Source: Salinispira sp. (GTDB taxonomy: Bacteria > Spirochaetota > Spirochaetia > DSM-27196 > Salinispiraceae). From it: a stretch of 64,000 bases of DNA. Below are positions 38,819 through 55,679 of the stretch, piece by piece. Each line of letters opens with the position of its first letter. The first letter of the stretch is position 1. The notes under the pieces were generated by a model, which saw only the letters and a list, made by a program, of their open reading frames with translations, was not told where the DNA came from and ran no database searches. The position numbers and the translations under genes were made by a program. The stretch spans positions 736,001 through 800,000 of the forward strand of contig OZ271918.1 in the NCBI GenBank assembly GCA_965602015.1. Direction: 5' to 3'.

Positions 38819-38819
<1 letters not shown>
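34743..38819 (-). pseudogene. Hybrid two-component sensor (beta-propeller, Y_Y_Y, TM, HisKA, HATPase, REC, LuxR HTH), interrupted by an in-frame TAG at 38298-38300
   Basis: Repeated DxxGxxWxGTxxGGLNR units; AHETKTPL, NLIDNAIKY, GIGMGL; REC (DDD, DIMM, KPF); LSTRERE...ISVRTVEKH. ORFs 38298-38819 and 34743-38246 are in the same frame across the TAG. Confidence 0.88.
38754..38801. repeat. 21-bp tandem repeat, about 2.3 copies, in frame
   Basis: CCGGCGGGGAACTGCAGACCT x2 plus CCGGCG; encodes RRRSAVP x2 on the minus strand. Confidence 0.9.
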
Positions 38820-39967
<1,148 letters not shown>

Positions 39968-40032: not shown

Positions 40033-40056
40033 ATGTTACTACTATAAAAGTAACAT
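40033..40056. promoter_or_regulatory. Putative TrmB operator 1 (cphB/trmB intergenic)
   Basis: ATGTTACT-N8-AGTAACAT perfect 8-bp inverted repeat; core TTACTACTATAAAAGTAA at 40036-40053; extra half-site TTACTACT at 40092-40099. Confidence 0.7.
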
Positions 40057-40121
40057 ATTCCGACTTGCTTCGCCATCGGGAAACTGTAGTGTTACTACTG
40101 CAGTTATGATATAGTTAATCT

Positions 40122-40931
40122 ATGTCAAACTCCCTTGATTCCGCCATCGCCGACCTCATGGAGGCGGGTTTTATCGAATACGAGGCCAAGGTGTATCTCT
40201 CACTTCTGCAGAACCATCCGGCCAGCGCCTATACCATCAGCCAGAATTCTGGCGTCCCTCATTCGCGGGTATACGATATCTGCCGCCGTTTGAAGAAAAA
40301 GGGCTATGCGGTTTCATCGAGCAGCAAACCGGAAACCTTCTCACCCCTGTCCCCCGACGAGCTGGTGGACAAGCTCACCAGGGACAGCCAAAAACTGACC
40401 AAAAAACTCGGCAGCAGCCTGAAGTCGATTTCCTTCTCAAGTGATTTTGATCCCGTGTGGAATTTGCAGGACCGGGAAGAAGCCCTGGGCAAAACTGTTG
40501 AGATAATCAGCGGCGCACGGCGCATCCTGTATATCGGATTCTGGAGCGAAGAGTTCGACCTTTTGGAAGAACCCCTCCGCCACGCTCATGAACGGGGAGT
40601 TCAGGTATATATGCTGGTGTACGGACAGCTCACTCTGGATTTCGGGGAGTATTATTTCCACGACAGGGATCACCTGGACGAGATACAGGAGCAGGGCCGA
40701 AGCATCGATTTGGCGGCGGACAGTGAAATCTGCCTTTCGGGAATTCTGGGCGGCCCCGGCAAAACCGAAATGGTGTGGACAAAAAACAGCGGTCTGGTGC
40801 ACTCAATCGAAGGATATATCATCCACGATTTTTACCTGGCCGAGCTTGAAAAAGTCTTCGGCGAGGAGATGAACAGCAAATTCGGCAAAAACCTCATCGT
40901 CCTTCGCGACAAGTTTAATAAAAGCCATTGA
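40122..40931 (+). CDS. TrmB family transcriptional regulator
   Basis: GF..YEAKVYLSLL, ISQNSGVPHSRVYD...LKKKG winged HTH plus a C-terminal effector domain. Confidence 0.92.
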   Translation: MSNSLDSAIADLMEAGFIEYEAKVYLSLLQNHPASAYTISQNSGVPHSRVYDICRRLKKKGYAVSSSSKPETFSPLSPDELVDKLTRDSQKLTKKLGSSLKSISFSSDFDPVWNLQDREEALGKTVEIISGARRILYIGFWSEEFDLLEEPLRHAHERGVQVYMLVYGQLTLDFGEYYFHDRDHLDEIQEQGRSIDLAADSEICLSGILGGPGKTEMVWTKNSGLVHSIEGYIIHDFYLAELEKVFGEEMNSKFGKNLIVLRDKFNKSH

Positions 40932-40954
40932 TTAGCCGGCAGGAGAGAGTATAG

Positions 40955-41269
40955 GTGTTTGAGAGTATTGCTTTTGGAATTTCCTTTGTCAGCACCCTGA
41001 TACTGATTCCTCAGCTGGCATTTAGGAAGATGACCTGTGCCATTCACAGCCATCTAGTGAAAGATAATATTTTGCCGGCGGATATGGCCAGGGCTTCCGA
41101 GATCAACTACCGCCTCCGCCGAATTTCCCGGCTTGATTCGGGCTGGGGTGCCAGACATTGGCTTTTTTCCATCGATGTGCGCCACCGCGGCGCGGTCTAC
41201 CCCATGACTTCCGCAATCGACGGGCGCTGCCAACACCGCGATGCCGTCGATTGGTCAAAACATTCCTGA
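40955..41269 (+). CDS. Small hypothetical protein with an N-terminal hydrophobic segment
   Basis: RBS AGGAG before GTG; fills the gap between trmB and the convergent ABC ATPase. Confidence 0.5.
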   Translation: MFESIAFGISFVSTLILIPQLAFRKMTCAIHSHLVKDNILPADMARASEINYRLRRISRLDSGWGARHWLFSIDVRHRGAVYPMTSAIDGRCQHRDAVDWSKHS

Positions 41270-42079
41270 CTAAATTACATAATCCATTGAATCAGCCATT
41301 TCGCGGTGGAGCCCCTGGCGGCGGAAAATAAGCTCAGGGGACTCGGGGTCCCGCGGGCGGGGTAGGTCAACGGAGATTTCCCGCACCACGGTCGACGGGC
41401 TTCCGGATAAAATCAAGATGCGGTCGGCCAGCACCAGGGCTTCTTCAGTATCGTGGGTTACCATGAGGGCGGGAATACGAGTCGCGCTCACCAGCGATAC
41501 CAGCTCGCCCTGGAGCCTGATACGGGTGGCACGGTCCAGGGCGCTGAAGGGTTCGTCCAGGAGCAGGAGCTCCGGTTCGGCGGCCAGGGCCCGGGCTATG
41601 GAGACCCGCTGCCGTTGTCCCCCGGAGAGCTGCCTCGGCCAGCGGTTTTCCAAACCCTGAAGCCCCAGGTCGGTCAGAAGGCCATCGGCCCTGAGGATTC
41701 GCCGATTCCGCCGCTCCCTGTGTGTTGGATAATGCATTCCGCCGTCCCTGCGGTTCCCCGGGGCCTTGTCCTGCATCCCTGTCATAACGTTTCGCCGGGC
41801 GTCGAGCCACGGGAATAGCCTTGGCTCCTGGAATACGAATCCGATTCTCCCGGCAAATGAACTCCTGCCTTCCTCAGCCGGTGACGTGGAATCCCTGACA
41901 TCGGGAAGCAGGCCGGCAATGTGTCGGAGAAGGGTAGACTTTCCGGCCCCCGACGCACCGAGTACGACGCAGAGCTCGCCGGGTATCAGATCAATTGTGA
42001 TATTCCGAAGGATTTCCCTACTGCTGCCCTCGTTTCCAAGGTGCACGCTGGAAAGCGATACACTTATTCGGCGGTCCAT
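41270..42079 (-). CDS. ABC transporter ATP-binding protein (NitT/TauT, SsuB-like)
   Basis: GASGAGKST, FQEPRLFPW, LSGGQRQR and LLDEPFSALD motifs. Confidence 0.92.
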   Translation of the reverse strand: MDRRISVSLSSVHLGNEGSSREILRNITIDLIPGELCVVLGASGAGKSTLLRHIAGLLPDVRDSTSPAEEGRSSFAGRIGFVFQEPRLFPWLDARRNVMTGMQDKAPGNRRDGGMHYPTHRERRNRRILRADGLLTDLGLQGLENRWPRQLSGGQRQRVSIARALAAEPELLLLDEPFSALDRATRIRLQGELVSLVSATRIPALMVTHDTEEALVLADRILILSGSPSTVVREISVDLPRPRDPESPELIFRRQGLHREMADSMDYVI

Positions 42080-42867
42080 CGCAAAACCCTCCGTTTTATC
42101 AGGCTAAAAATCACATCGACCGCGGTATACAGCCCGGCGATGGTGATCATGTACACCAGAACCACATCGGTTGCCAAAAGTCCCGCGGCCTGGTTCATTC
42201 GCTGACCGATTCCGTCAACTCCAAACAGTTCGGACGCAACCACAGCCATCCAGCCCATGCCCAACGCGGTGTGCAGGGCGGTCATTACCCCCGGCAGGGA
42301 CTCGGGAATGGCTACACGCAGCAGGTAGGGCAACGGTGAGCCAAAGCCAAAGACCCGGCTGACTTCCCTGAGCTCCGCCGAACAGCGCTCCATGGAACCG
42401 GCTGTCCCCAGGCAGGTAATCCAGAATACTCCTATTAATATGATAAACGCCGAGGCCCAATGACTGATGCCGAACCAGATAATGCTGAAGGGTATCCAGG
42501 CCAGGGGCGGTATGGGCCGGAGAATCCGGATCAGTCCGGAGCTGAAGGACCGGAAACCCGGTGATATTCCCATGATAAAGCCCGTGCTGATTCCCGCCGC
42601 CGAGCCGATTGCCACTCCCGGCAGGTAGTGGATCAGGCTCTGTAGTACTTTTTGCCCCCAGATTCCCAACGGTGCCGATGGTCCGGCGCCCAGGTGAAGT
42701 TCCCGCAACCAGGCTGCGGGTACGGCGCTCGGCGGTGGGACCAGGGTTCGGGGAAAGAGTCCGGAGACTACGGATAGCTCCCAAATCAGCAGGAATGAGG
42801 CTATCCCCGCAGCCGGCAATGCGAACGAGCTAATCTGACGCTTCAGTTGTCTCGAAATAGCTGACAT
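42064..42867 (-). CDS. ABC transporter permease (SsuC/TauC-like)
   Basis: RPIPPLAWIP and WMAVVASE...GIG motifs; start uncertain. Confidence 0.88.
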   Translation of the reverse strand: MSAISRQLKRQISSFALPAAGIASFLLIWELSVVSGLFPRTLVPPPSAVPAAWLRELHLGAGPSAPLGIWGQKVLQSLIHYLPGVAIGSAAGISTGFIMGISPGFRSFSSGLIRILRPIPPLAWIPFSIIWFGISHWASAFIILIGVFWITCLGTAGSMERCSAELREVSRVFGFGSPLPYLLRVAIPESLPGVMTALHTALGMGWMAVVASELFGVDGIGQRMNQAAGLLATDVVLVYMITIAGLYTAVDVIFSLIKRRVLRWTAE

Positions 42868-43876
42868 CAATGAGTTCCTCAATATCCACCTCGGCGGCGA
42901 GGGTGCCGATCTCTACCTGAAAACGTTGCATCTCGGCGGTCGATTCGAGAATGATCCGGGGATCGGCCACAAAGGAATCCCGGCTTGAGCGCAGCGCCGA
43001 CTCAATTATTTGCGGATCCACGAGGCCATCCCCGATGGCTCCGGCAATTATCTCAGAGGCTTGCCCGGGCTCATCCCGGATAAAATCCGTTGCCCTGCGG
43101 ATCAATCGAACAAGCCGCTCTCCCAGGTCGGGATACTCATCAAAAAGAGGGCTGCGCACCGCAAGCACCGCACCCGGCTGGCGGGGAAAGAGCTGGCTTC
43201 CCCGGGCAAGCACCCGGGATCCCGGTTCTGCGTTGGAAACAATGGATACGATGGGCTCGAGGGTGCTTGCGCCGTCGACCGCCCCGCTGAGCATGGCCTG
43301 CTGGACCGCATTCGCCCCCATGCCGAGTATTTCCACATCCTCGGTGCCCACCTGCAGCACGTTTTCCAGCCAGTACATCAGTACTACATGAGGTACGCTC
43401 CCCTCCTGGAAGGTGGCGATTTTCGCCCTTCGTCCGTTTTCTTCCCTGAATCGACGGAAGACTCCCGCAGGATCTCTTTCATCCCAGTGCATAGCGAGAT
43501 TGTCCCGGGCAATAAAGGACATTTGCTCAATAATAAGCGAGGTAATGACGGCAATGTCCTGGCCGCGGCTTCTGGACACCATCGCCGGTCCGATACCGAA
43601 AAACATGATATCCAGATTGCCCGATGCCACCGCCTGAACCATGGCCGGTCCTGACTGGAACATGTTCTGATTGAGTACCAGGCCCTCTTCCCGGTCCCAG
43701 CCCTTTTCGGAGATGATAAAAAACTGGGAGACCGGGAGAATCGGCATCACCCCTGCTTCAAGACTGAGCAGTTCAGGGCTCGTCTCCGCCTGCTCGCCGC
43801 TCCCCGCGGCACCAAGGGCAGCAGTTGTTATGAAAAACATCAGCAAGGTCAGAATGATAGTTCTCATCCGGGGCAT
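42830..43876 (-). CDS. ABC transporter substrate-binding protein (SsuA/NMT1-like)
   Basis: Signal peptide; FQSGPAMVQAVASGNLD and SGAVDG...EP motifs; RBS GGAGG before ATG 43876. Confidence 0.88.
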   Translation of the reverse strand: MPRMRTIILTLLMFFITTAALGAAGSGEQAETSPELLSLEAGVMPILPVSQFFIISEKGWDREEGLVLNQNMFQSGPAMVQAVASGNLDIMFFGIGPAMVSRSRGQDIAVITSLIIEQMSFIARDNLAMHWDERDPAGVFRRFREENGRRAKIATFQEGSVPHVVLMYWLENVLQVGTEDVEILGMGANAVQQAMLSGAVDGASTLEPIVSIVSNAEPGSRVLARGSQLFPRQPGAVLAVRSPLFDEYPDLGERLVRLIRRATDFIRDEPGQASEIIAGAIGDGLVDPQIIESALRSSRDSFVADPRIILESTAEMQRFQVEIGTLAAEVDIEELIDVSYFETTEASD

Positions 43877-44057
43877 AGTATCCTCCAATAGCCAGGTTTA
43901 TTTGCTTGCTTAAACCTAACTAAGTAAAGTTGTAAAGTCAAGAATGAAGGTGTAAAAAAGGCAGCCTCGAGGCCGCCTATTCGTGAGTAAAAAATGCCGT
44001 GCCCCGAAAACAGCTGATTTAAATCACCAAAACACTTCGGCGAAAAAGGGGCCAAAC

Positions 44058-45011
44058 TCAGTGAGAGACGATGACCGTGCCCGCCTCTCCCCGTATTGCC
44101 GAGGGCAAACTGTCCACATCGGTGATGATAACCTTGTTGCCCGGATCGGCCTGGACAAACTCAATTGCCGCTCCGATTTTTGGTCCCATAGAGCCTGCGG
44201 GGAACTGGCCTTGACGCTGATAATGCCGGGCCTGCGCAAGGGTTATGCGGCTCAGGTCCTTCTGATCTGCCTTGCCGAAATTAATCGATACCCGGGGAAC
44301 CCCGGTGATAATAATAAGCTCATGGGCCCCCACCGCCAGGGCAAGCTTCATGCTCGCCAGATCCTTGTCGATGACGCAGTCCAGCCCTTCGATCAGCCCG
44401 TTTTCATCCCAGTACACCGGAATACCGCCCCCGCCCCCGGAGATGACCACATAATCTTCGTCGATGAGGTGCCTGATTGAGTCCTTCTCAATAATATCAA
44501 GCGGGTAGGGCGATGCCACGTATCGCCGCCAACCGCGACCCGCGTCTTCCTTAACCACCCAGCCGTGTTCTTTTGCAAGCTTCCTGGCTTCGGCTTCATC
44601 GTAAAACGGACCGATGGGTTTGGTGGGGTCCTCCATGGCCGGATCGGCGGGGTCGACCACGACCTGGGCCGGTATGGTAACCACATTCCGCCAAATCCCG
44701 TTTTGAATCATGGTGTTCTGCAGGCTTTGCTCGATCATATAGCCGATTGAACCGCAGGTCATGGCATCGGCAACTCCCAGTGGAGTTTCCGGAAGGGAAT
44801 TTCGTGAATTTTCCACCATGAGCATAATATTGCCCACCTGGGGACCGTTTCCGTGGGTGATTAGCAGGCGATAGTCGGATTTCAGCAGCTCGGCCAGACC
44901 AGCCATGGAATCCCGTGTGGCCTGAAACTGGGCGTGAATATCGCTTCCCCGTTTTTTGTCGAGAATGGCATTTCCCCCCAGGGCGACCACTGCAAGGCGC
45001 TTTTCTTCCAT
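44058..45011 (-). CDS. arcC: Carbamate kinase
   Basis: VALGGNA, THGNGPQVG, PTKPIGPFY, DAGRGWRR.VASP, IDKD and GSMGPK motifs. Confidence 0.96.
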   Translation of the reverse strand: MEEKRLAVVALGGNAILDKKRGSDIHAQFQATRDSMAGLAELLKSDYRLLITHGNGPQVGNIMLMVENSRNSLPETPLGVADAMTCGSIGYMIEQSLQNTMIQNGIWRNVVTIPAQVVVDPADPAMEDPTKPIGPFYDEAEARKLAKEHGWVVKEDAGRGWRRYVASPYPLDIIEKDSIRHLIDEDYVVISGGGGGIPVYWDENGLIEGLDCVIDKDLASMKLALAVGAHELIIITGVPRVSINFGKADQKDLSRITLAQARHYQRQGQFPAGSMGPKIGAAIEFVQADPGNKVIITDVDSLPSAIRGEAGTVIVSH

Positions 45012-45065
45012 ACCGGCTCCTTTTGGAAAAAAATATGCCGGCGGATTATAATGCCGGCGCAGTTA

Positions 45066-45083
45066 TTACTACTTTGATAGTAA
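45066..45083. promoter_or_regulatory. Putative TrmB operator 2 (arcC)
   Basis: TTACTACTTTGATAGTAA, 4 bp downstream of the minus-strand -10 element. Confidence 0.7.
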
Positions 45084-45087
45084 AAAT

Positions 45088-45117
45088 ACTATAGTCCCTG
45101 GAAAGCTCTGCTGTCAA
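45088..45117 (-). promoter_or_regulatory. Sigma70-type promoter of arcC
   Basis: Minus-strand TTGACA (45117-45112), 18-bp spacer, TATAGT (45093-45088). Confidence 0.6.
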
Positions 45118-45142
45118 TGAAATACTGTTTTTCGGTGGGGAC

Positions 45143-46840
45143 TCAGGTTATGAGTTGGTGTTGGAGAAACTCTTTTGAGTATGTTGTACAGAAACCATAG
45201 AGTTCCTCCCAGGAATCCAGTAGCTCGGCGTAGTTGTGGAGATAGCCCACGAGCGCAGAAAAATCTGCGGTTTCATCGGGAAGCCAGAAATTCGGCTCAT
45301 CGGCCAGTTCATCGAGAAATGCCATTGCCGCCCGGCAGTCGGCTACCCAACTCGACGGCGAATCATAATTATCCAGGGCTTGTTCAATAAGCCGCTTTCT
45401 CCCCGCCAGCGCCTGGAAAACCAGTTCGTCAAACAGGCCTTCCAGCTCATGCGCCGGCCATTGCAGAATGGCCTGAAGTTCGCCGCTCAGGAGTTTGAAG
45501 CCTTGTCCCAGTTCCCCGGCATCCCGGACTGCGAATCCCAACAGGAGCCGGATGAGGTCGTTGAGCCCCGGTCTTATCATCAGGGTGTCGATTGTGCCGC
45601 TTGTTTCCGCCGTGCGATGGCGCACGGCATAATCGGGCGTAAATGTGTAGGCCGAGGGCAGCAGATATCTCAGACTGGATCCCCACAGGCCGTCGGCATT
45701 TCTCCCCCTGGGGCTGAAGGGCGGCAGAACCGGAGAGGGGTTGAGAAGCAGATAGCCGCCCATCAGGCTGCCGTACCCGGCATGAGGATTGACGGGGTTC
45801 CGAAAAATCAGAGCGCTTTCCCGGCAGGATAAATATTCCTGATCGGTTTTATACCTTCTGCTGAATTCATTCCTGCCATAGAGGAGAAATGCATATGACG
45901 GCGACCCCGATACTCCCCAGTAGGGGTGCGAAAGTACCGCGACCTTTCCCTTGCCGCTGAGGGCGTCTTGAATGAGGGTGAACCGGGCTTCTGACAGATC
46001 GAGGGTCTCATGCCCCGATAAAAAACTGTTCACTGTTTCTCCGCCGGCAAAGCCGTACAACTCTTCCGGCATTATCTCCTCGCCCATTGTTTCAAGACCC
46101 TCCCAGTCCGATGCGCTTACCGCATGCACCGGTCTCCCTGTTGATGACAGGGAAAGGCAATTTTTGCCTCCGGCGAGTAGCTTTAGCCTTCGAAAAACCG
46201 GATAGATGTCATCGTCGGTCATGGCGATTTTGTCCCCCGCGCTTAGCAGCAGCAGGGTATTCCGATTACTTCCGTAAGCCTGAGAGGCGGTGTCTCCGTC
46301 GAGATTCAAGGCGAATCTGGCGCTCTGCTGCAATGCAGGAGGGAGACCTCGTATAAAGTCCTCCTGTGAAGACCGATGTAGATATGCGACCTTCTCTCCG
46401 CTCTGCCGGGCAAAGCTCAGTGCCGCCGAGCGCACCTGCGATGAATAGACCAGCGAATCGTCACTGATAATCCAGGATAGCTTATGACCGAGGCTTTGAT
46501 GGTGGCCCTTCCATGACCTGAGATGCTGCTCGAGCTGTTTGGGCCGGTCTTTGGTGGGGATGCAGTGATACGCCAATGAAGCCGCAGGAGTCTCAACGCT
46601 TTTCGCGCTGGCATCGACCAGATCCGCTAACGCAACTACCGAGCCGTTTTTCTCTAACTCATCGATGCAAGACTGAAGTCCGCTGATGCTCTCTTGAGGC
46701 CAGTTTTGAGATTCCAGAATTGATGATAACTGCTTTATGCTGCGCGGTGTTGTGAGGTGGGTGCGAATCTCCTCAAGCATTGGTTCGCTTGAGGAGATAG
46801 TTGTTGAAACATAGCAGGCGCCCTGCGGTAGGTAGTTCAA
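45143..46840 (-). CDS. Hypothetical protein with a GT-A (GT2-like) glycosyltransferase core
   Basis: CIPTKDRP..L, IISDDS, YGSNRN and AMTDDD (DxD) resemble GT-A nucleotide-sugar-binding motifs; TTG start uncertain. Confidence 0.55.
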   Translation of the reverse strand: MNYLPQGACYVSTTISSSEPMLEEIRTHLTTPRSIKQLSSILESQNWPQESISGLQSCIDELEKNGSVVALADLVDASAKSVETPAASLAYHCIPTKDRPKQLEQHLRSWKGHHQSLGHKLSWIISDDSLVYSSQVRSAALSFARQSGEKVAYLHRSSQEDFIRGLPPALQQSARFALNLDGDTASQAYGSNRNTLLLLSAGDKIAMTDDDIYPVFRRLKLLAGGKNCLSLSSTGRPVHAVSASDWEGLETMGEEIMPEELYGFAGGETVNSFLSGHETLDLSEARFTLIQDALSGKGKVAVLSHPYWGVSGSPSYAFLLYGRNEFSRRYKTDQEYLSCRESALIFRNPVNPHAGYGSLMGGYLLLNPSPVLPPFSPRGRNADGLWGSSLRYLLPSAYTFTPDYAVRHRTAETSGTIDTLMIRPGLNDLIRLLLGFAVRDAGELGQGFKLLSGELQAILQWPAHELEGLFDELVFQALAGRKRLIEQALDNYDSPSSWVADCRAAMAFLDELADEPNFWLPDETADFSALVGYLHNYAELLDSWEELYGFCTTYSKEFLQHQLIT

Positions 46841-46858
46841 CCGTTGTGGTCTATATGC

Positions 46859-47503
46859 CTACCAACCGCTGTTGCCCTCGGAAACCCCGTACACTTCGAA
46901 AACAAAATCGAAATCTTCCGCTGTGCCGTCGACGAATATGCGGAAACGGCGTCGCAGCAAGTAACCGAAGGTATTGATGTCATCATCTGAAAGGGTAATG
47001 GTAAAATCAGGTGACGACGCGCCGGCAGCCACGAGGGTACCGGTGGGTATTGCGGTAAAATCGCCGGTCAGGTCCGGGGAGGTTGGTGCAAAAAAATCCA
47101 GACTTCCGCCCTGAGTTGTCCTGGTCTCCAGATCGATATCAAATACCGGACTTCCCGAAAAGGTAATATCCTCATTTCCGTTATTGACAAAACGGAAGGT
47201 GTTCACAATATCAGGATCGAAATACCCAACATAGCCGAGATAGATTTGAGCGCCGGAGTAATACCTGGCCCCTGCCGCATCCTCGAGGTAGAAGGTTGGA
47301 CCGGGAAGTCCGTCGCTTCCGTCTGTACCGTCCGTACCGTTGAGTCCGTCTGCGCCGTCTATACCATTTAACCCCGCAGGACCCTCAGGACCGATGGGAC
47401 CTTCCGGACCGATGGGACCCTCCGGCAACTGAAAGATATCGCAACTTGCGACCAGCACACTTGCCATCACGAGAACGGCCAGTAACAACTTCCCTTTGTT
47501 CAT
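46859..47503 (-). CDS. Collagen-like lipoprotein
   Basis: Lipobox LVAS-C; 14 consecutive Gly-X-Y triplets (GPI GPE ... GLP GPT); beta-rich C-terminal domain; RBS GGAG. Confidence 0.85.
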   Translation of the reverse strand: MNKGKLLLAVLVMASVLVASCDIFQLPEGPIGPEGPIGPEGPAGLNGIDGADGLNGTDGTDGSDGLPGPTFYLEDAAGARYYSGAQIYLGYVGYFDPDIVNTFRFVNNGNEDITFSGSPVFDIDLETRTTQGGSLDFFAPTSPDLTGDFTAIPTGTLVAAGASSPDFTITLSDDDINTFGYLLRRRFRIFVDGTAEDFDFVFEVYGVSEGNSGW

Positions 47504-47790
47504 ACAAACTCCTCCAAATTTTCCCTCGTAAAGCTATTGAGGAGCTAATTCTTGGTCAAGTAAAAAGATAGTAGATTATTAAAATAATCGGAATTTTCAT
47601 CCATACGAGGTCCTGAAATCCTGTGATAATCAACATTAAATAGCGCAATTATACTGCATTCTCTGTTATTTACCGATTTAATCCATATGAACTACATTTC
47701 AAAAATAGTATGATTCCCGATGGCTGCCGGATTTTGCATGAGACAGCAAGTGGAGCGCTTGTGACAGTCCGGTTGCCGAAGGAGATAATT

Positions 47791-49740
47791 ATGCGAGTGA
47801 ATCGAAGTCTCCCGGGAACGCTTATGCTCATAGTCGCCTTATTATTGGCGTCTTGTGATATGTTTCCGGGGCTGGAAGGAGATGGCGGCGATCTGCTAAT
47901 TAGCATTAATGAGTCGGTTTCCCGGACTCTGCTGCCTGATATTTCAATGGATCCCCGTTCTTATCGAATCGATGGAACCGGACCTGCGGGCCAAGAGTTT
48001 TCTGTCGAAAGTGCCGACGAGCGCGTTCTGATTGAAGAGCTTATGTTCGGGGATTGGACGGTGACCGTGACGGCGATCAACGCCGACGGCACGGAAATCG
48101 GCAGGGGAGCCGCGGAGGTGACGGTGCGCAGTAATGAAACCGTAAGCACCTCCATCACTGTCACCCCGCTTGTGGGTTCCGGAACCCTCAGTCTGGAGGT
48201 GAACTGGAACGCGCCGGACATCCAGAGTCCGGAGATCCGGGCCGATTTGGTTCCGGTAACCGGCGATTCTCGCATCCTGGATTTTACCATCGTCGAAGGC
48301 CAGGGGCTGTTTTTTGCGGATGATATCGAAACCGGCTACCACAGCCTGATTCTTCAGCTATTTGATAACGGTCAGCTCGTTGCCGGTTTGGTTGAAGTTG
48401 TGCGGATTGTCCATGCGGAGCGTACGGAAGGGGTAATCGACTTTTACAGCATCAATCCCGCAACCGGCGGCCTCCAGGTTCAGGTTGAGCTTAATCTTCA
48501 AAACCCGCTTCACGTAAACATTGCCGCTCCGGCGCTTGAAAAGGCTGTAAACGAATCTATCGAACTACACTCGCATGTTTCCGATTATCCGGGGAATGTA
48601 ACGTATCTGTGGTACGTCAACGGCGAGGTTCAGGAAGCCGGGAGCAGTTATACCCTCGATGAAAGCTGGGAAGAAGGGTTTTATACGGTGAATGTCACCG
48701 CTTTTACCCCCGACGGCTTGAGGGCGGGAAGCGCCGGGGTCGACCTTACCGTCGCCGGTTTTTCAGGTCTGGATTTTGCAAATCCGAACAACTATGTCTC
48801 ACTGCCCGCATCGTACAGCAGGACCATGGAGTTCTGGGGTGATTTTGCGTACGTTTTTGATTCGAATAGAAGAGAACTAAAGGTGTACTCCCTACTGGAT
48901 CCTGACCTGCCTGCGCTGGCTCATCAGATTTCTACCGACGGCCTCGGGAATGTATATAACATGATTATCGTCGGCGATTATCTGTACCTCCCCCAGTATT
49001 GGGACAATACCATGGATACCTTCGATGTCGTCCGCTGTTTCGCTATACAGCCTGACGGTGGGCTTGACGAAATTGGCCCGGTTTTTTTCACCCCTGATTA
49101 TAGTCTCGGCCTCTCAACTGCACATTTTTTCCTGAGTGAGCAATACGGCGACATCTATCTATTTGAGCGGGGCTACAGCTACAGTCTACACAGATATGTC
49201 CAAGAGTCGGACGGCAGCCTGACGCTCCTCAGTACTTCTCAGCTGCCGGGGTTTGTACCCGAGCAGTCTCCAAGCCCTGGTTTCGCCGCGGGGAGCCTCC
49301 ATGTATCTACCTATCGGCGTAATCCCGACAATTCGATCTACTATTTCAACTACTTCTATGGCATATCAGAGAATGGAACGGTGAACCTTCACTCACGGTA
49401 TGAAGGGGTCGACATGGGGTATAGCAGGACGTCAGCCGGATCCTGGCAGGTGCTGAATTATAGCTACTCATATACTCTCGTGAATCCGGTGCTCGATGTC
49501 ATTACGTACCCAGAATTTACCGGATACAGCTATGAACGAGTTCAATCCGGTGACGGCGAATACCTGTTTACCCTGGCGTACGACCCAGTTCTTCAGAAGC
49601 GCTTGATACGCACACATCGGGTAAACGCTGACGGGAGTTTAGATATTCTCGGCCATGTCATTGATAAAACTCAGTCGGGCAGCATGGAAACAGCGGGCAT
49701 TCACAAAGGTCGGGTTTATTACACCGGAGGTTCTACATGA
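47791..49740 (+). CDS. Surface lipoprotein: beta-rich stalk plus a C-terminal propeller-like domain
   Basis: Lipobox LLAS-C after ATG 47791 (RBS AGGAG); N-terminal about 320 aa paralogous to the next gene; Tyr-rich repeats (GDFAYV, GDYLYL, GEYLFT). Confidence 0.75.
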   Translation: MRVNRSLPGTLMLIVALLLASCDMFPGLEGDGGDLLISINESVSRTLLPDISMDPRSYRIDGTGPAGQEFSVESADERVLIEELMFGDWTVTVTAINADGTEIGRGAAEVTVRSNETVSTSITVTPLVGSGTLSLEVNWNAPDIQSPEIRADLVPVTGDSRILDFTIVEGQGLFFADDIETGYHSLILQLFDNGQLVAGLVEVVRIVHAERTEGVIDFYSINPATGGLQVQVELNLQNPLHVNIAAPALEKAVNESIELHSHVSDYPGNVTYLWYVNGEVQEAGSSYTLDESWEEGFYTVNVTAFTPDGLRAGSAGVDLTVAGFSGLDFANPNNYVSLPASYSRTMEFWGDFAYVFDSNRRELKVYSLLDPDLPALAHQISTDGLGNVYNMIIVGDYLYLPQYWDNTMDTFDVVRCFAIQPDGGLDEIGPVFFTPDYSLGLSTAHFFLSEQYGDIYLFERGYSYSLHRYVQESDGSLTLLSTSQLPGFVPEQSPSPGFAAGSLHVSTYRRNPDNSIYYFNYFYGISENGTVNLHSRYEGVDMGYSRTSAGSWQVLNYSYSYTLVNPVLDVITYPEFTGYSYERVQSGDGEYLFTLAYDPVLQKRLIRTHRVNADGSLDILGHVIDKTQSGSMETAGIHKGRVYYTGGST

Positions 49741-51758
49741 GGATTATCAAGAAGATTAACACCGGGCTCGTGAATGCCATTTTTGCGTTCATCGCCCTAT
49801 TTGTGATGCTTTTCACACATGCATCGTGCGATCTTATTCCGACAGAATCCGGGAGCATACGCGTCAGCGCAGAAAATGCGGTTTCAAGGACCATAGCCCC
49901 GGATATTTCAATGGATGTGGCCAGGTATGAAATCGACGGCCGGGGCCCGGGCGAAGCGCAATTCAATGGTCATTTCCTTCCCGGTGAAACCTTCCTGGCA
50001 GAGAGCCTGCTGTTTGGAACCTGGACCGTCGAGCTGACGGCGTTAAACGAGGCAAATGATGTAATCGGCCGGGGATCATCGGACTGTGAGGTTCGCAGCA
50101 ATGAGACGACAGTTCTTATCGTCGAAGTTCTTCCTATTGAGGGGACGGGAACATTAGATCTGTCGTTCGCCTGGAATCCTTCACTTATAGATATGCCTGA
50201 ACTACGGGCATCGCTTATTCCCGTCAGCGGCGAAACAATCGATCTTGATGTTGTTCTGGATGCCCCGCAAGGGAACGCAACCTACCGTTCAGATTTTGCT
50301 AGCGGGTATTATACCCTGATTCTTCAGTTACTTGACAACGGCGCCCTTACAACCGGTCTGGTGGAAGTTGTCCGTGTCGTCGATAGCCAGGTTTCCTCGG
50401 CGGATATTGTATTTGAAAACATCAATATGCCGGGAGGCAGCATCGATATCAATGTTGATCTCGCTCTTGCTGATCCCATTCAGCTAACATTGGAGAATCA
50501 GCCGACCTTCATGCTTTCCGGTGATACGGTAGTATATGAGCCGGAAGTGAGCAATTATGCTGATAATCTGATATTTACCTGGTATGTCGACGGCCGGGCA
50601 GTGGACAACGCCGAGCAATTCTCCATGAATGGCACCTGGGGCGCAGGGTATCATCGCCTCTCTGTGACAGTTTTTACCCCTGACGGGCTTCGGGCCGGCA
50701 GCGCCCAACATGCCGTATATGTATCTGCCCAAAGCGGCTCAACGGAAGATTTGAGTGATCGTCTGGTATTGGGTGGGAGCAATTATTACGTGGATGATCA
50801 AAACCGCTTGTGGGGCTGGGGCGGCAACAGGGACGGACAAATGCTGCGGCCGGCGGGTGAGGACCTGGCAATCCCGACGGTAATAATGAGTGACGTAGCC
50901 AAGGTATGGAGCTCGGGCTATCATACGGGAATCCTAAAAACCGACGGCAGTTTTTGGACTGCCGGGTACAACTACCACGGCGAGTTAGGTGACGGCACTC
51001 GGAACAGCAGCTCGACTGCAATCAACGTCATGAATAATGTGGCTGACGCCTCGCTTTCGGGAAGCAGAACCATGATCATTACCGATTCCGGCGAAGCCTA
51101 CGGAACCGGCTATAACTACCACGGCCAGCTCGGCGACGGCACCAATATTAACAGAACGGGCTTTGTTCACGTAATGTCCGGTGTTACAAAAATTGAGAGC
51201 ACGGCGGTTACAACCTTGTTCCTTAAAGCCGACGGTAGCGCCTGGGGTTGCGGTGCCAACAGCAGCGCTCAATTAGGCGACGGGTTCACCGCGTCAGTGT
51301 ATTCCACCCCCTTTCTCATCGAGACGGGTATTGCTGATATCGCCATCGGCTGGAGCGGCTTCCTGCTGAGAACCGACGGTACCTTATTGGCCTCCGGAGT
51401 TAATCATTATGGCGAAATAATGAGCGGCGACACCGATCAATACCTGACGTACACAGAGCTGCTGCAGAATGTCGCTGAAATCGAATCGGGAGGCAATTAC
51501 AGTTATGTTCGCTTCACCGATGGTCGGGTAATCGCTGCCGGCTATAACTTCCAAAGAGAACTCGGAACAGGAGGCCGTACTCACCGGGTTGAGCCGGTGA
51601 CAATCGGAACGGGAATCGTAGACATCATTCCCGGAGAATATGCTTCGGCAGTTCAAACAGCTGACGGACAAATTCTTGTTTTCGGAAGCGTTCAGAACGG
51701 TCCCGATTTCAACCGACAGGACTACAGCCCCCTGCCCGAAGCTTTTTCCCTCTATTAA
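49737..51758 (+). CDS. Surface lipoprotein with C-terminal RCC1-like repeats
   Basis: Lipobox-like HAS-C; repeats DGSFWTAGYNYHGELGDGT, GEAYGTGYNYHGQLGDGT and DGSAWGCGANSSAQLGDG. Confidence 0.85.
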   Translation: MRIIKKINTGLVNAIFAFIALFVMLFTHASCDLIPTESGSIRVSAENAVSRTIAPDISMDVARYEIDGRGPGEAQFNGHFLPGETFLAESLLFGTWTVELTALNEANDVIGRGSSDCEVRSNETTVLIVEVLPIEGTGTLDLSFAWNPSLIDMPELRASLIPVSGETIDLDVVLDAPQGNATYRSDFASGYYTLILQLLDNGALTTGLVEVVRVVDSQVSSADIVFENINMPGGSIDINVDLALADPIQLTLENQPTFMLSGDTVVYEPEVSNYADNLIFTWYVDGRAVDNAEQFSMNGTWGAGYHRLSVTVFTPDGLRAGSAQHAVYVSAQSGSTEDLSDRLVLGGSNYYVDDQNRLWGWGGNRDGQMLRPAGEDLAIPTVIMSDVAKVWSSGYHTGILKTDGSFWTAGYNYHGELGDGTRNSSSTAINVMNNVADASLSGSRTMIITDSGEAYGTGYNYHGQLGDGTNINRTGFVHVMSGVTKIESTAVTTLFLKADGSAWGCGANSSAQLGDGFTASVYSTPFLIETGIADIAIGWSGFLLRTDGTLLASGVNHYGEIMSGDTDQYLTYTELLQNVAEIESGGNYSYVRFTDGRVIAAGYNFQRELGTGGRTHRVEPVTIGTGIVDIIPGEYASAVQTADGQILVFGSVQNGPDFNRQDYSPLPEAFSLY

Positions 51759-51775
51759 TAGTTCTTCGGCTGTAT

Positions 51776-51812
51776 GCTGCGGGAGGATCAACTTGATCCT
51801 CCCGCAGCTTTT
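51776..51812 (+). terminator. Rho-independent terminator
   Basis: 15-bp perfect stem GCTGCGGGAGGATCA/TGATCCTCCCGCAGC followed by TTTT, 17 bp after the RCC1 gene stop. Confidence 0.85.
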
Positions 51813-51849
51813 ATACACCCGCATCACATTGAACCGCAGCAACTATTCC

Positions 51850-51877
51850 TTGACAGCCCCAAAGCCTCCTGTATAAT
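51850..51877 (+). promoter_or_regulatory. Consensus sigma70 promoter of the ord operon
   Basis: TTGACA (51850-51855), 16-bp spacer, TATAAT (51872-51877). Confidence 0.8.
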
Positions 51878-51894
51878 TACTACTTCAATAGTAA
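51877..51894. promoter_or_regulatory. Putative TrmB operator 3 (ord operon)
   Basis: TTACTACTTCAATAGTAA overlapping the last base of the -10 box and the predicted +1. Confidence 0.72.
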
Positions 51895-51992: not shown

Positions 51993-53054
51993 ATGAAAGA
52001 ACGGGTCAAGGTCCTCCTCTGGGGCTTCGGGGCAATGGGATCGGGCATGGCACGGATGCTTCTGCAAAAAACCGGCGTTCAGATTAGCGCGGTTTGCGAC
52101 AATCACCCTCAGCGGGCCGGCAAAAGCATCTTTGAGGTATTGGGGCAGGAAGCAGGGGATCATCCGGATGTCATCATTCGACCTGATATACATGAAGCAC
52201 TGTCGGATGCCCGGGCCGCCGGAGCTGTATCAATCGCCCTGTTGGCTACCGATTCCTTCACCAAAATGGCTTATGAGAAAATCATGCTCCTGGTGAACGA
52301 GGGAATCAATGTTATTTCCACCGCCGAGGAAATGGCCTATCCCAGGGCAGGCGAGCCCGAACTTGCCCAGAACATTGACCGGGCTGCCAAGGCTTCCGGG
52401 GTCAGCGTGCTGGGAACCGGCATCAATCCCGGGCTGATTATGGATCTGCTGGTGGTTCTGATGACCGGCGCATGCATCAATATCGATTCGATCAAAGCCG
52501 AACGGGTCAACAGTCTATCTCCCTTCGGTCCGGCGGTAATGGAGGAACAGGGAGTCGGCCTCAGCCCCGAAGAGTTTAGAGAAGGGGCGGCCAATGGCAG
52601 CTTGGCCGGCCATGTGGGCTTTGCCGAGTCGGTGAACATGATAGCCGACGCTGTGGGCTGGAAGCTGGACGGTCCCGTTGAACAGGCAATGAAGCCAATT
52701 ATTTCGTCGGTTCCCCGCAAAACCGAGTACATAGAAATAGAAGCCGGCCAGGTCGCGGGCTGCAATATGACCGGTTCAGGAAGGGTTTCGGGGACCGGAG
52801 GCATCGAAATGGACCATCCGCAGCAGATTGAACCGGAGCTGGAGGGAACCGACACCGGTGATTATGTGACTATTAAGGGTACGCCGGATATCAATCTTTC
52901 CATCAAACCCGAAGTGCCCGGAGGCATCGGGACCATCGCCATGTGCGTCAATATGATTCCCCAGGTGATCAATGCATCTCCTGGCTTAAAAACCATGCTC
53001 GACCTGCCGGTTCCCCGGGCGATTCTGGGCGATATCCGCGACCGCATCGAATAG
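51993..53054 (+). CDS. ord: 2,4-diaminopentanoate dehydrogenase
   Basis: WGFGAMGSG, ATDSFT, STAEEMAYP, LGTGINPG and HPQQIEP motifs; adjacent to oraSE. Confidence 0.93.
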   Translation: MKERVKVLLWGFGAMGSGMARMLLQKTGVQISAVCDNHPQRAGKSIFEVLGQEAGDHPDVIIRPDIHEALSDARAAGAVSIALLATDSFTKMAYEKIMLLVNEGINVISTAEEMAYPRAGEPELAQNIDRAAKASGVSVLGTGINPGLIMDLLVVLMTGACINIDSIKAERVNSLSPFGPAVMEEQGVGLSPEEFREGAANGSLAGHVGFAESVNMIADAVGWKLDGPVEQAMKPIISSVPRKTEYIEIEAGQVAGCNMTGSGRVSGTGGIEMDHPQQIEPELEGTDTGDYVTIKGTPDINLSIKPEVPGGIGTIAMCVNMIPQVINASPGLKTMLDLPVPRAILGDIRDRIE

Positions 53055-53064
53055 GAGAAATAAC

Positions 53065-53478
53065 ATGAAGGAACGACCCGACGATTATACCCGGCGCCGT
53101 GCTCATTTGGCGGATTTGACCGAAGAGCAGCTGGAAGCCCATTTCTGGGATCTGGCCGACAAGCTGACCCAGCCCTTAATCGAACTGGCTCATGGTCATA
53201 CCAGCCCGTCAATCGAGCGCTCGGTGCTCCTGAGAATGGGCCTGTCATCCATTGAATCCCAATCGCTTGTAAGCCGGGCGGTGGATACCGGCCTGATTGG
53301 AAAAGGCGCAGGTCATATCGTCTACAAAATCAGCAAACATACGGGGTTGGATATCCGAGCGGCCGGGCAGGCTCTGGCCGAAGGCCGGTACTGGGATGAT
53401 GCGGCCCGGCTCTTCGCTCAAAGCGGACCTTCGTCAAACGCGTCGGGAACCGAAACATCAGCCGGAGGGCAACAATGA
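53065..53478 (+). CDS. oraS: D-ornithine 4,5-aminomutase, small subunit
   Basis: R.DDY..RR.HL, HTSPSIERSVLLRMG and GKGAG motifs. Confidence 0.93.
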   Translation: MKERPDDYTRRRAHLADLTEEQLEAHFWDLADKLTQPLIELAHGHTSPSIERSVLLRMGLSSIESQSLVSRAVDTGLIGKGAGHIVYKISKHTGLDIRAAGQALAEGRYWDDAARLFAQSGPSSNASGTETSAGGQQ

Positions 53479-55679
53479 AGCTGGAAACGAATAAAAAGCT
53501 CGATGTCGAGGAAATCCTCAAGGACCTTGAAAGCTATCACCCTCGACGCCGCGGCTGGACATGGAGGAAGGGTATCGGCGAAAAGCGGGGTATCGGTCCG
53601 TTCGAGTACTATCAGACCAGTGAAAACCTGAACAACAATGTGCCCCTCCCTGCCGCCCATTATTTCGGAGATATCGACCCCCAGCCCGTGAGCACCATTA
53701 CCACGGAAATCGCTTCAGGGCGATTCGAGGACGACATACGCCGGATGAGAATGGCCGCCTGGCACGGAGCGGACCACCTGATGGTTATCCGCACCGCAGG
53801 CCAGAGTCATATGGACGGGCTTCTGGAGGGAACTCCCCAGGGTATAGGCGGCGTGGCGATTACCCGAAAGCAGCTGCGGGCACAGCGGAAGGCCCTTGAT
53901 GCCATTGAGGACGAGGTCGGGCGGCCCATTAACTACCACTCCTATGTCAGCGGAGTGGCCGGACCGGAGATGGCGGTACTATTCGCCGAAGAAGGGGTGA
54001 ACGGAGCCCACCAGGACCCCCAGTACAACGTCTTGTACCGCAATGTGAACATGGTCCGCTCTTTCGTGGATGCGGCTGCGGCAAAAAAAGTTATGGCCTG
54101 GGCGGGAATTGCCCAAATCGACGGCGCCCATAACGCCAACGCCACAGCCCGCCAGGCCTGGAAGGTTATGCCCGAGCTGATGGTCCAGCATGCCCTGAAC
54201 TCCATGTTTTCCGTAAAGTCCGGCATGCCAAAGGAAGACATCTGCCTTTCAAGCGTTCCTCCCAGCGCGCCTCCGGCTCCGGCCATGCGGCTCGATCTGC
54301 CCTATGCCGTGGCACTGAGGGAATTATTCCGGGATTACAAAATCCGGGCCCAGCAGAACACCAAATACATGACCAGTTCCGCCCGGGAGGCCACGGTGAC
54401 CCACACCCTGAACCTTCTGATAAGTCAGTTTACCCGGGCTGAAATCCAGTCGACCATCACCCCCGATGAGGGACGGAATGTCCCCTGGCATATTTATAAT
54501 ATAGAGGGAACAGATACCGCCAAGCAGGCTTTTAGCGGGATGGACGGTCTCATGGAGATGGTTCAGCTCCGCAGGGACGAAGGCGAGCTCGCCGATTCGG
54601 TCCGGGAGCTCAAGGAGCGGGCCGTTCTGTACATGGAGGAAATGCTCGAGCTCGGAGGGTATTTCAAGGCGGTTGAGGCCGGGATGTTCGTCGATTCGGG
54701 CAAGTACCCCGAGCGAAACGGCGATCCCATCGTCCGAAAAGTCGACGACGGCATCGGCGCCGGCACAGTGTACCCCAGAGATGAGGAGTACATGGCCCCT
54801 GTTACCGCGCACTTCGGATACAACAATCTCAAGCCCTTCGGCCCCGAAGCCGTAAAAAATCCATCCAGCCTGATCGGCGGTTCAACCTTCGAAAATCCGG
54901 ATAAAATTGTCTTCATCGATGAGCTCGACGAGAGCGACAACGTCAACCTCCGCATGGCGGAAACCGCTGAGCTCCGGGGCGGAACCAAAATCAAGCCTGA
55001 AATGGAGTGGCAGGGTGACGGAACGGTGCTTGTGACCGTCTTCCTGCCCACAGACGAGCGCACCGCCAAGGTCGCGGCTCTTGAAGTGGGTAAGGCAATG
55101 AACCTGAGCGAGTGTGAGGTTATTCACAGCGAGGTCATGCACCCCTCGGAGGGGACCCGCATCGAGTTAAAGGGCAGGCTGGATGTAATAATCGATACGG
55201 CTTCCCTTGAAATCCCCCCGGAGCCCGACATCATGACCGCCGAAGAAGTGGCAGCCGAAGTAAAGGTCCGGCCCCTCACAATAGTTGCGGGAACCGTGGG
55301 CGAGGACGAGCATTCGGTGGGCCTGAGGGAAATAATCGACATCAAGCACGGCGGAATCGAGGGGTACGGAATACAGTGTCTCTACCTGGGGACTTCCGTA
55401 CCCCTGGAAAAACTGGTTGATGCGGCCATCGAGGCAGATGCCGAGGCAATTCTGATGTCCACCATTATCAGTCATGATGAAATTCACTATAAAAATATGA
55501 AGCGGGTCCACGAGCTGTGCATTGAGAAAGGGGTGCGCGACCGCCTTCTGATTCTTGCCGGCGGAACCCAGGTAACTCCAGACCTGGCGGTAAAACAGGG
55601 AGTCGATGCGGGCTTCGGACGGGGTACCAAGGGCATCCACGTGGCCACCTTCCTGGTAAAAAACCGCAAGGGCAGGTAA
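53475..55679 (+). CDS. oraE: D-ornithine 4,5-aminomutase, large subunit (PLP and AdoCbl dependent)
   Basis: EIASGRFEDDIRRMRMAAWHGADH; C-terminal B12 domain GEDEHSVG...IDIKHGG with the PLP lysine. Confidence 0.96.
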   Translation: MKLETNKKLDVEEILKDLESYHPRRRGWTWRKGIGEKRGIGPFEYYQTSENLNNNVPLPAAHYFGDIDPQPVSTITTEIASGRFEDDIRRMRMAAWHGADHLMVIRTAGQSHMDGLLEGTPQGIGGVAITRKQLRAQRKALDAIEDEVGRPINYHSYVSGVAGPEMAVLFAEEGVNGAHQDPQYNVLYRNVNMVRSFVDAAAAKKVMAWAGIAQIDGAHNANATARQAWKVMPELMVQHALNSMFSVKSGMPKEDICLSSVPPSAPPAPAMRLDLPYAVALRELFRDYKIRAQQNTKYMTSSAREATVTHTLNLLISQFTRAEIQSTITPDEGRNVPWHIYNIEGTDTAKQAFSGMDGLMEMVQLRRDEGELADSVRELKERAVLYMEEMLELGGYFKAVEAGMFVDSGKYPERNGDPIVRKVDDGIGAGTVYPRDEEYMAPVTAHFGYNNLKPFGPEAVKNPSSLIGGSTFENPDKIVFIDELDESDNVNLRMAETAELRGGTKIKPEMEWQGDGTVLVTVFLPTDERTAKVAALEVGKAMNLSECEVIHSEVMHPSEGTRIELKGRLDVIIDTASLEIPPEPDIMTAEEVAAEVKVRPLTIVAGTVGEDEHSVGLREIIDIKHGGIEGYGIQCLYLGTSVPLEKLVDAAIEADAEAILMSTIISHDEIHYKNMKRVHELCIEKGVRDRLLILAGGTQVTPDLAVKQGVDAGFGRGTKGIHVATFLVKNRKGR

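Follow-up and report, generated by a model that had tools for sequence, protein, structure and literature searches.

TrmB proteins are mostly sugar regulators of archaea (PMC4158304), and the operators described for them take the form TACT-N3-AGTA or TACT-N7-8-GAGTA (PMC4158304, PMC3794607). The ornithine pathway and its genes are also known (PMC9815643), and OrdR, a sigma-54 activator, has been predicted to control ord-ortBA-oraSEF-orr-nhaC in the Clostridiales (PMC6615313). We analyzed a 64,000-nucleotide (nt) stretch of the genome of a Salinispira sp. (assembly GCA_965602015.1, contig OZ271918.1, positions 736,001 to 800,000 of the forward strand; "the window" denotes this whole stretch), in which a gene for a TrmB-family regulator of 269 amino acids (aa) (40122..40931, + strand) is accompanied by an 18-bp palindrome, here called the box, at genes for cyanophycin, arginine and ornithine breakdown. 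Sequence comparisons indicate that, in many free-living spirochaetes, this TrmB is very probably a box-binding repressor of arginine and ornithine catabolism; the regulon is real, is backed by good controls and is apparently undescribed. No paper linking TrmB to arginine or ornithine catabolism was found in a full-text literature search, whose coverage excluded subscription journals, RegPrecise and supplements, where an earlier prediction may exist.

Archaeal TrmB, TrmBL1/Tgr and Halobacterium TrmB, as they have been described, resemble the spirochaete protein in having a winged helix, a coiled coil, an effector domain and an RVYD helix with its tyrosine (PMC4158304, PMC3794607), and their palindromic TACT...AGTA operators, repression sites at the transcription start and autoregulation agree with what is predicted for it (PMC4158304, PMC3794607; PDB 3qph). 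Unlike the archaeal sugar TrmBs, the spirochaete TrmB is bacterial, is associated with sigma-70 promoters and amino-acid catabolic targets and has no sugar-binding Gly/Glu part. TrmBL2 (PDB 5bpd), which gives the best structural matches at about 21% identity, is equal in length and layout and also lacks the last 70 residues that carry the sugar site, but it is described as largely a non-specific chromatin protein, whereas the spirochaete TrmB accompanies a rare 18-bp operator and a narrow regulon (PMC4158304). OrdR is predicted to control the same ornithine-oxidation genes, together with nhaC-type transporters such as are also boxed here, but it belongs to an unrelated family and would act by sigma-54 activation, in contrast to the sigma-70 repression proposed for the TTGACA/TATAAT-type targets of this study (PMC6615313). 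The spirochaete regulon, unlike that of OrdR, includes arcA, arcB and arcC, an ArcE-like gene, ornithine cyclodeaminase and cyanophycin genes. Arginine deiminase genes are regulated in response to arginine or redox state by ArgR and Crp-type ArcR, which differ from the spirochaete TrmB in fold and motif.

Results

The initial annotation of the window had placed the palindrome at three positions, and all three 18-mers are present there: TTACTACTATAAAAGTAA at 40036..40053, between the divergent cphB and trmB (22 bits with a matrix trained on other genomes, and kept in genome G001); a copy at 45066..45083 that covers the predicted arcC transcription start; and a copy at 51877..51894 whose first base is the last base of the ord -10 box and which is the top-scoring site of the whole genome. 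A weaker fourth site, which the annotation had overlooked, lies at 40092..40109 (14 to 15 bits; 14.7 with the matrix trained on other genomes), just 5' of the trmB start and over its likely extended -10 box (a promoter read by eye); an identical 18-mer sits 31 nt 5' of the start of the trmB orthologue in genome G002, and the site is a candidate for trmB autoregulation. The pattern TTACT-N8-AGTAA, with at most one mismatch, occurs four times in the window (three times exactly) against an expectation of 0.52, and none of 100 shuffles gave four; three of the six exact cores in the 3.87-Mb genome fall in the window. The TTGACA...TATA(A/G)T promoters that had been described just 5' of the arcC and ord boxes were confirmed by a consensus scan, in which they are the two best sigma-70 promoters of the region, each directly before a box. 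The arcC promoter (45088..45117, - strand; 11/12 consensus matches) has TTGACA starting at 45117, an 18-nt spacer and TATAGT ending at 45088, with the box beginning 4 nt downstream; the ord operon promoter (51850..51877, + strand) is TTGACA-16-TATAAT and matches the consensus at 12/12 positions. At cphB the most likely promoter, as judged by eye, lies some 65 nt downstream of the box, a position that makes repression of this gene by TrmB only putative. A -10-like box about 7 to 15 nt 5' of the trmB start codon, seen in the window (40105-40122) and at many orthologue loci, suggests by its position that the trmB mRNA may be leaderless.

In the whole genome (G000; 3.87 Mb, 3,269 genes called by a custom script, 89% coding), a matrix built from the three window sites gave 14 matches with scores of 16 bits or more, none of them inside a called gene. 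A second matrix was trained on nine sites that precede trmB orthologues of other genera; it gave 11 matches of at least 18 bits, all intergenic, while 40 column-shuffled matrices gave a mean of 1.9 matches, 0.5 of them intergenic (maximum 10 and 4). The motif is rare. Pathway genes stand at 7 of the 11 sites (cphB/trmB, arcC, ord, arcA, ortA, iadA and a second cyanophycinase), three of which are in the window. The sites that had been expected elsewhere in the genome from the three window copies, at arcA/arcB, ortAB and an isoaspartyl dipeptidase gene, were found: those at genome positions 803693 and 803736 lie between the divergent arcA-arcB and ortA-ortB-ald-lrp, and that at 807245 precedes iadA (isoaspartyl dipeptidase). 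A further site, at 2632931, precedes the second cyanophycinase and a YfcC-type transporter gene. Sugar genes occur at none of the 11 sites, and the assigned targets of 106 of the 113 sites collected (7 had no target) include no sugar gene, but the reference set used for assignment contained none. Two palindromes at 1037060 and 3498863, which precede a GntR-like gene and an ABC-transporter gene (named by eye), were rejected as box sites; they have the form GTACT-N8-AGTAC, go unscored by the refined matrices and are probably the sites of a different regulator.

The TrmB orthologues form a tight group, with at least 47% identity among the 120 listed; the closest (91%) is from an uncultured Salinispira sp., the cultured species Salinispira pacifica (PMC4511686) encodes one with 75% identity (P0002), there are few close clusters among 1.84 billion representatives, and the sources are mostly Spirochaetota with some Desulfobacterales and Deltaproteobacteria. 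They occupy one branch of a quick tree (Shimodaira-Hasegawa-like approximate likelihood ratio test, 99), the group itself having been defined by similarity to the query. A box was present in 41 of 59 non-redundant orthologue loci (39/59 with the matrix of the three window sites only), and 39/59 carried an arginine, ornithine or cyanophycin gene (ord in 19, ortA in 10, an ArcE-like gene in 10, arcC in 9 and cphB in 1). By comparison, the box was found at none of 11 TrmB paralogue loci, and 12 shuffled matrices matched at no locus. The refined consensus, from 97 sites, is TYACTAYT-N2-ARTAGTRA, worth about 26 bits. A de novo dyad count over 37 upstream regions, weak alone, had its top dyad in 4 and shuffles reached 2; genome-wide pattern totals were uninformative, a reversed-pattern control often matching equally, and positions only were used. 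One trmB orthologue (P0121; genome G200, contig C134:5849-7810) is fused to an alanine-racemase-family domain, and several genomes have genes of this family, which may act on arginine or ornithine, next to trmB, ord or arcA.

The two other TrmB paralogues of this genome were rejected as box binders: their own upstream regions score below 3 bits for the box and carry a different palindrome, AGTAGTAC-N5-GTACTACT or a variant, in which the box half-site is in the opposite orientation. This shared half-site in opposite orientation suggests that each TrmB paralogue owns its operator. The paralogue palindrome (AATAGTAGTAC-N5-GTACTACTATT and variants) was seen just upstream at 3206200-3206260 and 1784770-1784820 in this genome and at loci L011, L013 and L015. 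It is probably a second bacterial TrmB operator, sugar related; one of the two paralogues adjoins an alpha-amylase-family gene.

Co-occurrence was examined in 401 Spirochaetia genomes, with trmB called at E<=1e-8: 38 have trmB, 34 have an ord match that exceeds the cut-off, and 26 have the two together. The box stands directly at ord in 25 of these 26 genomes; in the exception (G239) it lies 4.8 kb upstream of ord, where it heads a same-strand run of genes. Eight genomes have ord and no trmB match, one of which (G231) has an ord cluster that reaches the contig edge, and in all five with upstream DNA no site above 9.5 bits occurred in the 17 to 18 kb around ord. A box within 300 nt of arcA was found in 21 of 31 trmB genomes (two more had too little upstream DNA) versus none of 20 trmB-less relatives, the latter chosen from 139 arcA carriers with near-complete genomes favored and many from the same families. 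The site is conserved at orthologous promoters and goes with one TrmB subfamily across these genomes. The palindromes might also be chance AT-rich matches or pieces of promoter or terminator sequence, in keeping with the AT richness of promoter regions and with the -10-like TACTAT inside the box, but the information content over the 97 sites, the failure of shuffled matrices and the lack of the box where relatives without trmB have matching arcA and ord promoters make this exceedingly improbable.

The same genomes bear on whether another regulator, for example the Lrp/AsnC protein of the ortAB-ald operon or ArgR, binds the box while trmB is merely a co-regulated neighbor. An Lrp/AsnC gene does lie inside the boxed ortAB-ald-lrp-iadA run of this genome, Lrp/AsnC homologues (best match 37 to 59% identity) occur in all five trmB genomes tested, ArgR is present in G000 as a separate gene, and two assemblies have boxes with no trmB detected. 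The Lrp neighbor is seen in the cluster only in this genus, however, and the box, which stands upstream of many trmB genes, shares its TACT core with TrmB operators. The box also tracks TrmB rather than ArgR, which the initial annotation had named as a possible alternative binder: all four trmB-less ord genomes tested have ArgR, and none has the box. We consider a different binder very improbable. ARG boxes were rejected as an explanation for the unboxed arcA promoters, a core with at most two mismatches giving no signal (3/21 boxed, 2/10 unboxed and 2/20 trmB-less promoters); in this genome, the core had one two-mismatch match, near 1 of 5 sites.

Several observations weigh against the assignment of the box to TrmB as an operator for these pathways. 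Four of the 11 strong sites are off pathway, at pckA, gdhA, a SerA-like dehydrogenase gene whose product scores below the phosphoglycerate dehydrogenase cut-off, and position 2588215; the first three are probably regulon members as well, and the pckA site is kept in G001. The site at 2588215 reaches 21 bits, but it lies within a seemingly decayed coding sequence and was rejected as an operator and taken as chance. The nine training sites of the second matrix come from the same 59 loci that were counted, and 18 of these trmB loci have no box in the DNA covered, as is the case within 300 nt of arcA in 10 of the 31 trmB genomes. The genomes are related, so that co-occurrence counts overstate independence and kinship inflates any test. 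Two genomes (G347 and G227) have 24- to 25-bit boxes at ord, and G227 also at arcA, with no trmB at the threshold used; they count against TrmB unless the gene is missing from these fragmented assemblies, whose completeness is 87% (480 contigs) and 90% (430 contigs), respectively. A further genome without trmB (G299) has one exact box elsewhere, near a gene for an oligopeptide-binding protein. Finally, TrmB shares its length and layout with TrmBL2, described as mostly a non-specific chromatin protein without a sugar pocket (PMC4158304).

The mode of action was judged from promoter geometry, with sigma-70 promoter weights, a promoter threshold of 10 bits and the -10 box required to start 4 to 25 nt before the site. 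A promoter lies directly 5' of the box at 52 of 88 non-redundant target sites, compared with a mean of 2.1 (maximum, 5) for shuffled flanks and one to five placements for windows shifted from the box. Repression is the simplest reading, since a protein bound just after the -10 box would block initiation. That ligand-bound TrmB instead turns catabolic genes on, as ArcR or OrdR would, is very improbable: some arcA and ortA sites are upstream of or inside weak promoters, and activators, OrdR for one, are among the regulators known for these pathways (PMC6615313), but 24 of 28 ord sites have a near-consensus sigma-70 promoter immediately 5' with the box on the start, an arrangement in which no activator is needed and initiation would be blocked. 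A minority of sites, that of the window cphB among them, lie 50 to 70 nt upstream of the best promoter and may be neutral or activating. An extension of the repressor model, possible though unlikely in our judgment, is that TrmB represses where the box covers the start and activates where it stands 50 to 70 nt upstream (cphB, gdhA, the SerA-like gene and some trmB genes), so that a shortage of ornithine or arginine would set scavenging and ammonia assimilation going. At gdhA, the SerA-like gene, the G001 cphB and eight trmB genes, the -10 box of the best promoter is 55 to 70 nt downstream of the start of the site, and Tgr, TrmBL1 and Halobacterium TrmB are described as activating or repressing by site position (PMC4158304). 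These promoter calls are mostly weak (8 to 11 bits), however, except at divergent trmB genes, where the opposite ord promoter explains the box; the second cyanophycinase and iadA show repressor geometry, and archaeal activation acts through TBP/TFB and not through bacterial RNA polymerase.

The product of the window trmB gene has a PF01978 winged-helix DNA-binding domain (66.7 bits; cut-off, 25.6), a coiled coil and a PF11495 effector domain of PLD-like fold (28.6 bits; cut-off, 22.2; model covered only in part). Its predicted structure (mean predicted local distance difference test score, 91.6) matched TrmBL2 (5bpd), TrmB (3qph), 2f5t and PLD nucleases in Foldseek searches. Tyr50 of Pyrococcus furiosus TrmB contacts DNA (PMC4158304, PMC3794607), and Y51, which aligns with the RVYD recognition helix of 3qph, is invariant in 60/60 orthologues. 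The protein has 269 aa versus 342 aa for the archaeal TrmB; the sequence match to 3qph stops at residue 166, the model ends in two helices, and the C-terminal sugar-binding part (Gly320/Glu326) is lacking. With the DNA-contacting tyrosine present and the sugar part absent, a ligand, if any, would therefore bind elsewhere. Scores against the archaeal sugar-TrmB NCBIfam equivalogs reach at most 72.5 bits (cut-offs of 500 to 650; 600 for the best match) and 37.5 bits against the TrmBL2 equivalog NF041141 (cut-off, 530), and no AAA+ activator domain of the OrdR type was found in Pfam or NCBIfam scans; the protein belongs to the broad TrmB family, outside the sugar-sensing subfamilies. H180, D196, D200, E230, H235 and D236 are invariant or nearly so among the orthologues and would suit a basic amino acid ligand; judging by motif, these residues may line the old PLD active site.

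The gene names given to the window by the initial annotation hold for all but one of the pathway genes. CphB cyanophycinase (38819..39967, - strand; TIGR02069, 148 bits, cut-off 126.6; no signal peptide seen), ArcC carbamate kinase (44058..45011, - strand; TIGR00746, 364 bits, cut-off 358), the 2,4-diaminopentanoate dehydrogenase Ord (51993..53054, + strand; NF040740, 506 bits, cut-off 400), the B12-dependent D-ornithine 4,5-aminomutase OraE (53475..55679, + strand; NF040743, 1,348 bits, cut-off 800) and the GlmL-related ornithine degradation protein Or-4 (55679..57205, + strand; NF040744, 604 bits, cut-off 600) exceed their NCBIfam cut-offs, and the aminomutase small subunit OraS (53065..53478, + strand) was assigned by Pfam (PF16552). 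The last gene of the run (57198..59123, + strand) encodes an Orr-like ornithine racemase, below its cut-off (NF040742, 433 versus 480 bits, residues 13 to 362), fused to an arginase-like domain (PF00491, residues 487 to 558). In G001 and G002, arcC and ord are divergent neighbors with two boxes between them, and their separation in the window therefore looks like an insertion that split a promoter pair. Four genes now lie between them (45143-51758), encoding a 565-aa protein without a family match, a collagen-repeat lipoprotein-like protein and a pair of large secreted proteins, of which one contains RCC1 repeats. The ABC transporter at 41270-43876 was rejected as a regulon member, being without a box and parted from arcC by a terminator-like stem (43978-43959). 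Near 38250-38300, a sensor-kinase-like gene with beta-propeller-like repeats is apparently split into two frames (34743-38246 and 38298-38732).

Outside this genome, a 442-aa "putative GTPase" is often the boxed gene beside trmB, including in genomes without arginine deiminase (L134, L196, L197 and L263-L272); at 6 of 10 loci a box lies no more than 100 nt from it. Its names ("putative GTPase" and "cyclic 2,3-diphosphoglycerate synthase family") fit the arginine synthetase ArcE as described in PMC11032458, a comparison by description only; the passages on ArcE there make no mention of TrmB. The reference ArcE, TK2200 of T. kodakarensis, converts arginine to citrulline in an ADP/Pi-dependent manner. 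The 442-aa protein had no match in a solved-structure search. NhaC-type transporter genes are also boxed. Directly after the ornithine operon of G015 comes an opine-dehydrogenase-like gene (L191:6333-7513) with a strong box and a promoter in front of it. In metagenome loci L067 and L076 the genes after trmB are a boxed arcC, a gene for a distant ArcA relative (about 30% identity) and one resembling class III aminotransferase genes, an arrangement that represents a different arginine/ornithine route and in L067 also contains arcB.

Discussion

Direct binding, repression and induction are inferred here from the motif, its conservation and co-occurrence with trmB, promoter geometry and gene identities. 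In the mechanism that we propose, a TrmB dimer would bind the palindrome TYACTAYT-N2-ARTAGTRA and block sigma-70 transcription of operons that convert arginine to citrulline and ornithine (arcA or an ArcE-like enzyme, arcB and arcC) and of the ornithine-oxidation operons (orr, oraSE, ord, ortAB and ald); in this genome it would also cover cyanophycin scavenging through two cyanophycinases, the YfcC-type transporter and IadA. A pathway metabolite bound in the effector domain would release TrmB from the DNA.

We give L-ornithine about an even chance of being the inducer. Ornithine is a product or a substrate in every pathway that has the box, the box is a more regular feature of ord than of arcA, and in G230 the box is at ornithine cyclodeaminase and an NhaC-type transporter gene and not at arcA. 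Arginine is a distinctly weaker candidate, favored over ornithine by the arginine-to-citrulline enzyme found in 37 of 39 trmB genomes (arcA in 33 and an ArcE-like gene in 4 of the other 6), compared with ord over its cut-off in 26/38; several genomes without ord have a box at arcA. Another ligand, or none, is unlikely, and citrulline is less likely still. Ornithine is the peptidoglycan diamino acid of the Spirochaetaceae (PMC4511686), which would be a reason for tight control of its breakdown. We tentatively suggest, while doubting it more than we believe it, that this TrmB subfamily, which is without the sugar pocket, senses L-ornithine, probably in the remnant of the PLD active site (H180, R193, D196, D200, E230, H235 and D236), as a checkpoint that burns arginine, cyanophycin and ornithine only when wall precursors are in excess and may switch scavenging genes on when they are scarce. 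A cultured species of the same genus is described as not growing on amino acids or peptides (PMC4511686), and the pathway may therefore supplement rather than support growth.

The initial annotation had TrmB repressing a whole cyanophycin-arginine-ornithine pathway. Its arginine and ornithine parts are supported by sites, conservation and geometry, but the cyanophycin part is local: of 39 trmB genomes, 5 have a cyanophycinase match, with a box in only 2 (G000 and G001), the other three having no box in loci of 2 to 4 kb. The conserved regulon is therefore one of arginine and ornithine catabolism, to which cyanophycin is a local add-on. The second cyanophycinase of this genome has a lipoprotein-like leader (by eye), and no cyanophycin synthetase was found in the genome. 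The box ties an exported cyanophycinase and a transporter to fermentation here, which, with no synthetase found, points to scavenging of cyanophycin made by others; use of outside cyanophycin via cyanophycinase and IadA is a described route (PMC9974463). The YfcC-type basic amino acid transporter gene behind this cyanophycinase (genome 2628536-2631382, - strand; L020:8537-11383) encodes a 450-aa C-terminal extension without a Pfam match, and its product, in which this extension would serve for binding on the outside, is a candidate importer of beta-Asp-Arg.

In summary, these comparisons, which include matched negative controls, assign a specific predicted operator and a regulon of amino-acid genes to a bacterial TrmB subfamily. 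B12-dependent ornithine oxidation would gain a second, unrelated regulator; the only one that we found in print is OrdR, as predicted in clostridia. Different enzymes that serve one function are brought together by the box (arginine deiminase, the ArcE-like protein, ornithine cyclodeaminase and the opine-dehydrogenase-like protein), together with NhaC, YfcC, YitT and EamA transporters, and the box therefore predicts functions for uncharacterized genes. A repressor responsive to ornithine or arginine with an 18-bp operator could serve as a biosensor, and a putative TrmB effector site away from the sugar pocket can now be put to a direct test. If the ornithine checkpoint is real, this TrmB would sense an amino acid through a ligand site that is new, and the box would tag undiscovered arginine and ornithine enzymes and transporters.

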